A DNA stretch of 64,000 bases from Spongospora subterranea f. sp. subterranea (taxonomy: Eukaryota), in NCBI GenBank assembly GCA_049724395.1, contig JAUGWO010000013.1, forward strand, positions 124,001-188,000, written 5' to 3'. How positions within the stretch are numbered: the first letter of the stretch is position 1; each line of letters opens with the position of its first letter. Below the pieces are notes generated by a model. The model was given only the letters and a program-made list of their open reading frames with translations. It was not told the origin of the DNA and ran no database searches. Made by a program: the position numbers and the translations under genes. This document shows positions 19,828 through 21,652 of this stretch, piece after piece.

Positions 19828-21652
19828 ATGACCGCATCACCCGCATCACAGGCCCCACCACCCGCATCACAAGCGGAGAAGGCTGCGCAGCAGCCCTCTC
19901 CGCTTGAACGGTCCGTACACGCATCACCAACGGAGAACGCTGCTGCGCAGCCTTCTCCGCCTGAACGCTCCGCCACTCGGTCCAAGGCCCGTCGTCAGAC
20001 CAACATTTGCGCCATGGAGCGTACGATCGTGGGCGCCATTCGTCCCGACCGAACTGGCAAGAAGCGGTTCAAGCTCTCGCAAGCTCAGCTTGAGCTTGTA
20101 CAAGCAGGAGTCGATGCCGTCCTTGCGCGTATGAACTTGACTAGGCGGCAGAACGTTCTCCCTAGTCAGAGTTGGGTGGACGGACTTGCCGTCGAGGAGA
20201 GCACCAAGCGAGCATACGATAAGCACCTCCGCGGCCTACTGTATTTCTTCGGACTGATTGGGGACTTCGAGTCGCTGATAATCCTGCAGCCGGATGCGCC
20301 GCACAACGTTCCCGCCATGAACGTTGACTCAATCCGTAAGGGAACCACGTTTGGCTTCTTCTTGTAGAACTGATTGCTCTTTCTCAGTACTTTATCTTGA
20401 TTGGCGAACTCTTGAGGAAGGGACTCATCTGCAGAGGGCTGATGGGACAGCGGTACTGGATACGTTCGGTGCTCAAATCCTGTCGTCTGGATCTTGGTTA
20501 GATCCAGATAACGTCACGCAGATGGGCTCCGCTCTCAAGGCGATTCATCAAAAGTTCGACCATAGGGGCGCCTATCAGGGAGTATGCCCTGATTGTCAGT
20601 TGCAACGTGCGCTGACTCCTCCCAACCGACTCGGATGCGATAGGCATTCGCCATCGCCATTAATCTGGCGAAAAGGAGTTCCGAGGGCCTTGGGGGACAC
20701 ACACTTTGAGGAAGACAGGGTACCTCATGGCAATATGGGGTGGTGGCCAGATCGAACAGATAATGCTATCGGCTAGGCACAAGACCCTGGCCAGCGCCCA
20801 GAAATATTTTCAGGACGCTGCTGCTCTTTTGCATCTGGCCAAGATCCAAAGGTGAAAGTGAGACCGAACTTGATATTTGTTGCTTAGTTACAGTGCAGGG
20901 ATAACATTTTATTGAAATATGCTTCTGAATGGCATGCAATTCATGTCATCAACCCTGGCCAATTTCTGGCGTTAAACAGGAACGTTCAGCAAACCACTTC
21001 TCTGGAAGATCATGCTAGCAGCATGATTGCCAGCCTAGTGCAACAGAAGGCTCTGCCTGTTCATTTTCAAAACGTGCCGCTTCAAATTTCCAAAGCGCTG
21101 CTGCTGATGTCCGAAGCCACACAGGACTTGCAGAGGGAAATGGACGACATCCTTAAGCAATTGAGAAATGCGGGTTTGGAAAGTCTGGGTTCGAGGCTTT
21201 TGCAGATAATGCAGAAATTACGTTCCGCCGCAGATGCCACCAACGATCAGGTCGACAATGATTCCGCAAATAGCATTGTGGCTCCCTCATCTGCAGATCC
21301 GGCGGTGCAGCGGCCTGAGAAGCGCGCTCGTCCAAGCGAGCAGCTTTTTGATGTCGCCGATCGGAAAAACCTGCGCAAGGCAAAGTCCACCGCGGCGAAA
21401 CTGGCCATCGTTCGGGCTATCAACGAGGCCTGTACAACAGCTGCAGAATCCCGAATGAGATTTTGCCCGGCGCTGAAAACGGTTTTCTATTCAGTGGCCG
21501 GCCCGATCATGCGGTGCCTGATCGATCACTGCTCCGGCGACGACGCTGACTTTTCCCGGAGATGGGGGTCGAACTCCTCCCACAGCGACTGGGGGCGAAC
21601 GAGGTGCCCCGGACCGGATCCCGACGATCGCTGCGGCTTTCTCCACCAATAA
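19828..21652 (+). pseudogene. Spliced tyrosine recombinase gene (Crypton/phage-integrase-like) with an apparent internal deletion and frameshift near 20680
   Basis: Exon 1 has a core-binding-like ESTKRAYDKHLRGLLYF; intron 20336-20387. The +1 frame from 20682 reads RGPWGTHTLRKTGYLMAIWGGGQIEQIMLSARHKTLASAQKYFQD (H 20700, R 20709, H 20778, Y 20805). A phase-2 intron at 20852-20898 joins this frame to ORF 20912-21652. Confidence 0.8.

Follow-up and report, generated by a model that had tools for sequence, protein, structure and literature searches.

A probable dead copy of a Crypton-type transposon in Spongospora subterranea, and the tyrosine recombinase family to which it belongs

One region of the window (the whole 64-kb stretch of Spongospora subterranea f. 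sp. subterranea DNA that was analysed) appears to be a dead copy of a Crypton-type DNA transposon, a recombinase-only element whose intact form would move by means of a tyrosine recombinase alone. The probability of this reading is put at roughly 85%. Crypton is used here in the broad sense of eukaryotic DNA transposons that encode only a recombinase (Kojima and Jurka 2011, PMC3212892; usage as in PMC13465315). The element resembles Cryptons in that its only gene encodes a tyrosine recombinase, that both reverse transcriptase and terminal inverted repeats are absent, that it measures a few kb, and that it is repeated, with deleted derivatives among its copies. The family may be a Crypton-type clade that has no name as yet; its status as a new subfamily is plausible but unproven, CryptonS having been compared by description only. 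The features of the element are as follows, with positions given in the window.

19776 to 21758, + strand: probable Crypton-type (recombinase-only) element, in a copy with an internal deletion; the right edge is well defined and the left one approximate
19828 to 20335, + strand: exon 1; encodes a low-complexity N-terminus followed by the initial helices of the core-binding domain
20336 to 20387, + strand: intron 1, 52 nt, GT..AG; skipped by contigs in both of the two RNA runs (X3 and X13)
20388 to 20684, + strand: exon 2 before the deletion; hairpin insert, core-binding helix 3 and Cys/His cluster 1
20546 to 20647, + strand: Cys/His cluster 1 (His, C-x2-C, C-x2-H), a predicted zinc site inside the core-binding domain
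20682 to 20684, + strand: deletion junction, with a microhomology of 3 nt; some 180 codons lost and the frame shifted
20682 to 20851, + strand: exon 2 after the deletion; box II His at 20700, Arg at 20709, His at 20778 and nucleophile Tyr at 20805, out of frame
20852 to 20898, + strand: intron 2, 47 nt, GT..AG; skipped by one X13 contig, unspliced in an X3 contig
20899 to 21652, + strand: exon 3; helical region, linker and C-terminal domain
21350 to 21649, + strand: C-terminal helical domain with cluster 2 (Cys 21515, His 21527, Cys 21605, Cys 21632), a second predicted metal site

Gene Structure and Reading Frame

Assembled contigs from four of the 24 listed sequencing runs (X1 and X2, DNA; X3 and X13, RNA) were compared with the window over positions 19300-22300. 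Both introns proposed in the initial annotation are seen to be spliced in the RNA contigs, the one at 20336-20387 in X3 and X13 and the one at 20852-20898 in a single X13 contig. The frame starting at 20682 had been taken for the box II segment of a tyrosine recombinase, and this holds, with its His at 20700, 23 residues from R to H and 9 from H to Y. It is this frame, and not the ALGDTHFEED frame, that is conserved in all six full-length homologues with examined alignments (38-58% identity, E 4e-5 to 3e-17). An alignment of the homologue P0016 that reaches into the out-of-phase frame at 29% identity was rejected as over-extension, P0016 matching the box II frame at 58%.

Over all six frames of the window there is one instance of the exact 23/9 spacing but nine of the looser H-x-x-R..H..Y pattern, so the motif alone is weak evidence and it is homology that carries the case. 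No recombinase profile in Pfam or NCBIfam matches the window's box II segment. The CPDC-x13-CDRH cluster reported initially is present, at 20585-20647, and the upstream frame (WRKGVP) does meet the box II frame out of phase, at 20682-20684, the two differing by one base. The downstream ORF to which intron 2 was said to lead also exists, with a stop-to-stop length of 254 aa rather than 246 aa.

Probable Internal Deletion of the Window Copy

Contigs of all four runs depart from the window sequence behind 20684 and rejoin it before 20682, and the loose ends on both sides, read by eye, are in frame. As the other copies run in frame into sequence that is absent from the window, the window copy appears to be internally deleted; 20682-20684 are the three bases common to both breakpoints. 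The upstream loose end resembles, again by eye, the onward sequence of P0001, which is the closest homologue (63% identity) and which carries a box-I-like Arg motif past the junction point. The initial annotation had suggested that a frameshifting deletion removed box I. Copies compared across 20670-20690 support such a deletion in the catalytic domain, contigs of all four runs holding the missing segment and entering it in frame; its extent was underestimated, as about 180 residues are missing and not box I only.

A profile built from 52 full-length homologues gives the size of the gap. Its positions 10-198 are matched by the 268 aa encoded upstream of the junction after splicing (E 1e-57) and its positions 377-670 by the 307 aa encoded downstream (E 4e-57), so that positions 199-376 have no counterpart. 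The segment between the anchors is 169-208 aa long in 62 aligned homologues, with a median of 183, of which the window keeps 3. Judged on a structural model of the homologue P0011, the gap would contain the last core-binding helix, the linker, the box I Arg, the Lys and the beta-sheet.

Translated without correction, the deleted copy runs to a stop 30 residues past the junction and gives a product of 298 aa with no catalytic residue in frame. The window copy thus does not hold the full catalytic set in one reading frame, and it makes no active enzyme because the catalytic Arg and Lys are missing and the Tyr is out of frame. Behind 20682, run X3 has a second, different continuation besides the intact one, which may be another rearranged allele that breaks at nearly the same place.

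Homologues and Catalytic Residues

A two-sequence profile search at E ≤ 0.001 among 1.84 billion protein representatives found 495 homologues. Among the 150 matches listed, 52 are full-length (620-850 aa), and 62, picked as full-length or long partial, were aligned. The first catalytic Arg and the Lys are present in all 62; of the other catalytic residues, the first His is kept in 59, the second Arg in 58, the second His in 60 and the Tyr in 59. Intact family members thus carry the R-K-H-R-H/W-Y set of the tyrosine recombinase superfamily. In a pattern search, 40 of the 52 full-length proteins match, 26 of them with the 23/9 spacing of the window and 38 with nine residues from H to Y. The median pairwise identity of the catalytic domain is 34%.

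Profile libraries recognise the family poorly. NDC10_II is matched by eight and Phage_integrase by three of the 62 members, all below the Pfam cut-off, and a Pfam search with 32 homologues gave three weak matches to the recombinase clan, none above the cut-off. GCR1_C (at E ≤ 0.1), DUF3504, DUF3435 and ALOG are matched by none of the 62, and GCR1_C has no match in the exon-3 ORF of the window. Since the family falls below the Pfam and NCBIfam cut-offs, annotation pipelines label its members hypothetical proteins. A search of PDB sequences with the 62-sequence profile returned no recombinase, only chance helical matches, and the neighbours in the ESM Atlas are other tyrosine recombinase clusters. 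None of 381 pattern matches in metagenome contigs was a related locus. Three homologues, P0141, P0344 and P0193, with Boothiomyces and a diatom among their hosts, are considerably longer, at 1178-1284 aa, and may carry other domains fused to the recombinase.

Predicted Fold and Cys/His Clusters

The evidence on fold comes from an AlphaFold2 model of the intact homologue P0011 (pLDDT 89.9), not from the window's own protein. As the initial reading of the motif implied, the modelled homologue has the phage-integrase fold, matching Cre, XerH and lambda Int. Foldseek places Cre first (E 9e-8), followed by XerH, XerA, lambda Int and Ndc10, and VIA-align superposes the model on Tre/Cre with a Z of 17.4 and an rmsd of 3.9 over 301 residues, across model range 48-448; isolated catalytic domains align to it from about residue 235. 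A search of a viral structure library found distant phage integrases and VLF-1 only. Cre of phage P1 is the best structural match across both domains (Z 16-17 over about 290-300 residues) and has the same order of catalytic residues. It differs in sharing only 13-15% identity, and in lacking the two core-binding inserts and the approximately 250 extra C-terminal residues of this family.

Cluster 1 is close to invariant. In P0011 numbering His169, Cys182, Cys185 and Cys197 are present in all 62 aligned homologues, and position 200 is His in 60 and Cys in two. It is assigned to the core-binding domain because it spans from helix 156-171 to just before helix 216-228 of the P0011 model. Cluster 2 lies within the last 100 residues of the protein. 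Over non-gap rows, its first position is Cys in all 52, its second His or Cys in all 52, its third Cys in all 51 and its fourth Cys in 33 of 43. From their conservation alone, both clusters are predicted to bind zinc.

The C-terminal domain is modelled as six helices (pLDDT 82). It has no fold match by Foldseek (best E 6) or in the ESM Atlas, and the best VIA-align score against 48,161 chains is a Z of 5.2 to a designed helical protein, a lack of matches that does not show a new fold. Where the initial annotation envisaged a subfamily with a zinc-binding insert and a C-terminal domain, both the Cys/His insert and the C-terminal domain are indeed conserved; the insert, however, belongs to the core-binding and not the catalytic domain, and the C-terminal domain has a second Cys/His set of its own.

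Element Ends and Repeat State

The gene sits in a dispersed repeat, as seen from raised depth in the two DNA runs and from three X1 contigs whose right flanks are not alike. Over the gene, contig depths sum to about 690-1000 in X1, where the left flank has 80.5 and the right 53.4, and to about 340-1000 in X2, where the left flank has 34.3; relative to the left flank the element is about 9-13 times deeper in X1 and 10-17 times in X2, bearing in mind that contig depth is not copy number and cannot rank parts of the gene either. Divergence from the window is about 1% in most of the X1 contigs listed (0 of 353, 6 of 499 and 7 of 582 letters), and one X1 contig of low depth differs at 40 of 426 letters. 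There is no second copy of the gene elsewhere in the 64-kb window. As read in the deleted window copy, the repeated unit is filled by one gene and, like Cryptons, is without reverse transcriptase and RNase H.

Contig depth places the left edge at 19782-19792 and the right edge at 21761-21765. At the right end, the three X1 contigs are common up to 21758 and different afterwards, and at the left end one X3 contig departs before 19784. No terminal inverted repeats or long direct repeats joining both ends were listed, the longest inverted match near the ends being 8 nt. A short terminal repeat is suggested by two motifs:

19776 to 19780, + strand: CATGG, candidate target-side copy of a short terminal repeat (inferred), just outside the depth-derived left edge
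21754 to 21758, + strand: CATGC, candidate donor-end motif, the last bases common to other copies

The two match over only 4 nt, and there are two CATG in the left flank and four in the right one. As the flanks are rich in CATG, and the X3 contig with another left flank has no CATG motif there, the assignment of this terminal repeat is tentative. TATGG is absent near either element end. The contigs compared gave no sign of an empty site, of an excised circle or of a fresh insertion.

Other copies have small internal deletions or replacements in exon 3, at 21348-21410 and 21609-21676. The low-complexity N-terminus includes a 57-nt duplication at 19860-19972, and an X3 contig skips 48 nt there in frame, so that its length varies among copies. 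An X1 contig over the right flank runs leftwards into other sequence. Loosely similar stretches rich in ATCATGA lie at 17274-17349, 19688-19784 and 21764-21851, and two of these stretches bracket the recombinase element in the same orientation; all three may be subterminal motifs of transposons or a preferred target region.

Genomic Neighbourhood

Directly upstream of the recombinase element, at 17397-19675, lies a PIF/Harbinger element, with a Myb/SANT gene on the + strand (Myb_DNA-bind_3, E 6e-9) and, on the - strand, a fragmented DDE_Tnp_4 transposase (E 1e-10 and 1e-7). An X13 contig joins 19686 to sequence that by eye resembles 18325-18355, which suggests a deleted Harbinger derivative. 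A MITE at 21883-22395 has 38-nt arms that are 97% complementary, TA on both sides, and many different flanks in X1 and X2; it is presumably Tc1/mariner (Stowaway)-like. The window also holds a weak DDE_1 (pogo-type) transposase fragment at 23045-23437, a copia-type gag fragment at 44263-44892, a tandem repeat with a 58-nt period at its very start (1-233), and a long tandem array of low GC content at 25269-26642, which has a period of about 57 nt and is open in several frames. Host genes were recognised by their domains:

10674 to 11468: Paf67
27833 to 28462: BMT5-like
48295 to 48945: DnaJ_C
55866 to 59787: type II topoisomerase
62508 to 63353: Rcd1

Host Distribution

The Rcd1 ORF of the window matches a Spongospora subterranea protein at 100% identity across 95% of the query, the next best matches being at 81-84%, in keeping with a host that is this plasmodiophorid or very closely related to it. 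For the recombinase homologues, host names were available for six of 36 matches (Chytridium twice, two Aphanomyces species and two diatoms), for three of ten representatives in a second set (Zopfochytrium twice and Boothiomyces) and for none of ten in a third. Chytrids therefore make up five of the nine names. Bacterial fragments of 40-44 aa inside one homologue cluster were treated as clustering noise. Six Chytridium lagenaria proteins that are 86-97% identical to their representative lie on different contigs, which is independent evidence for a dispersed mobile family.

A broader proposal is made with a little more doubt than confidence, namely that the family is an undescribed recombinase-only clade, with a zinc module in the core-binding domain sited unlike that of ALOG and a second, zinc-bound C-terminal domain lacking a match to any solved fold, and that this clade is common to chytrids, Aphanomyces and diatoms and has recently been amplified in a plasmodiophorid, a distribution that would point to horizontal transfer among zoosporic parasites and their hosts.

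Relationship to Known Recombinase Elements

The family lacks the features by which CryptonF, CryptonA, Starship captains and ALOG-type DIRS are defined. Further Crypton groups are listed in Repbase and Dfam. With the CryptonF/Ndc10 lineage the family shares a recombinase followed by a C-terminal domain, as well as the weak NDC10_II matches in eight of 62 members and a weaker structural match to Ndc10 (Z 9.8). It differs in that the defining GCR1_C was found in none of the 62, the C-terminal domain here being helical, Cys/His-bearing and without a fold match. A donor/target end pattern has been reported for the active Chlamydomonas element CryptonF-1_cRei (PMC9977147), and the placement of CATGG and CATGC fits that pattern, given that the assignment here is tentative. 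CryptonA and Glomhopper differ from the family through DUF3504, which is matched by none of the 62, and through having no C-terminal domain, whereas about 250 conserved residues follow the Tyr here. Starship captains differ both in DUF3435 (0 of 62) and in scale, the repeated unit being about 2 kb as opposed to a giant cargo element.

Compared with Cryptons as a whole, the two conserved Cys/His clusters stand out, as the available text of PMC3212892 does not mention them ('cysteine' has 0 occurrences there). The host also differs, Rhizaria being missing from the 2011 host table, and the terminal repeats here are tentative. Among the literature matches listed, a scope outside which subscription papers and Repbase Reports lie, there is no description of a Crypton with these clusters or of one in Phytomyxea. 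The available portions of PMC13746701 and bioRxiv 10.64898/2026.10.14.759018 mention neither Cryptons nor tyrosine recombinases.

Alternative Explanations

The reading with the most bearing on how the family should be named is that the element is an ordinary member of the named group CryptonS, in which case only the host lineage and the two Cys/His clusters would be new. This is a genuine possibility, if not the favoured one, and as a matter of naming it is compatible with the Crypton-type reading. CryptonS are described, in the available text of PMC3212892, from oomycetes and a diatom, as lacking GCR1_C, having a conserved C-terminal region and measuring mostly about 2.5-4 kb; their terminal repeats are 5-6 bp long, mostly TATGG with others existing, and most of the listed families come from Phytophthora. 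The present family overlaps in hosts through its Aphanomyces and diatom homologues, has a conserved C-terminal domain and no GCR1_C match, and is of similar size, the intact element being inferred to be about 2.5 kb; CATGG is moreover one base from TATGG. A mild argument against membership is that no Phytophthora is found among the named matches and that five of the nine names, a small sample, are chytrids. No cysteine cluster is mentioned for CryptonS in the accessible part of PMC3212892, according to a word-based search that is not exhaustive. The comparison is one of descriptions, no CryptonS sequence having turned up in the available supplements of PMC3212892, PMC6681497, PMC13465315 and PMC4157794.

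The remaining alternatives concern the deletion and the kind of element. That the deletion is an assembly error in a collapsed repeat, the real locus being intact, is unlikely. It would be in keeping with the repeated nature of the element, with the finding that none of the listed contigs of the four runs bridges the window's own junction, and with X2 and X3 contigs that cross a breakpoint unbroken into intact sequence, the X2 contig passing the left breakpoint without branching. Against it, in X13 one contig stops at precisely 20684 and another begins at precisely 20682, there being a single loose-ended contig on each side, which suggests a second, deleted allele, as such contig ends are what that allele would give; the depth arithmetic in X13 fits either the presence or the absence of a bridging contig. 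The 3-nt microhomology at the junction and the internal deletions in exon 3 of other copies likewise argue for a real event. A deleted copy kept as a regulator, whose 298-aa product, keeping cluster 1 and most of the core-binding domain, would bind the element ends and repress transposition, is harder still to credit: the 268 residues before the junction do form one open frame, both RNA runs are deeper over the 5' than over the 3' parts of the gene, and a second continuation occurs at 20682 in X3, but contig depth cannot rank gene parts, the last core-binding helix (model helix 216-228) would be lost, and there is no sign that the allele has been amplified or conserved. There is very little to recommend the view that the recombinase belongs to a DIRS/Ngaro-type retroelement or is carried as cargo by the neighbouring Harbinger element. 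The Harbinger transposase and Myb gene do lie directly upstream, and ALOG-type DIRS retroelements are known to carry a zinc module within the core-binding domain, with HxxxC and CxC between helices 2 and 3 (Iyer and Aravind 2012, PMC3537659), a likeness to the module predicted here inside the four-helix core-binding domain of a eukaryotic tyrosine recombinase. The several-fold rise in depth is nevertheless confined to the recombinase gene, no reverse transcriptase was found among the neighbouring ORFs tested (Harbinger, pogo-type and host genes), ALOG is matched by none of the 62 homologues, and the ligands here run from helix 3 into the loop before helix 4 rather than lying between helices 2 and 3. 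Finally, the chance that this is a naturally minimal recombinase, expressed through programmed frameshifting or unusual splicing, is negligible; the sequence after the junction does retain an intact box II and Tyr, yet no frameshift could provide the Arg and Lys found in every one of the 62 aligned homologues, and the missing sequence is present in other copies.

Proposed Mechanism

For the intact form of the Crypton-type element, a mechanism can be sketched by analogy with Cre and with the published Crypton model, in which excision as a circle and reinsertion are proposed and experimentally undemonstrated (2026 review, PMC13565253, in the part available). The enzyme would bind both ends of the element through its core-binding and catalytic domains, and synapsis of the two ends would be followed by Tyr-mediated cutting and strand exchange, as in Cre chemistry. 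The element would then be excised as a circle and, following the Crypton model, the circle would recombine into a short target resembling the end motif, for which CATG is a candidate core. Cluster 1 is likely to be a zinc module that extends the contact with DNA, and the C-terminal domain likely binds DNA or partner subunits. The deletion in the window copy probably arose through microhomology-mediated repair, and this copy would be mobile only in trans, with enzyme supplied by intact copies.

Implications

The window copy itself is an ordinary dead transposon, and the family matters more. With most copies seen in the runs about 1% from the window, the element may still reshape the genome of this crop parasite. 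The Crypton circle-and-reinsert model, and what zinc modules add to a Cre-like enzyme, could be tested directly with compact, single-ORF members that have all the catalytic residues.
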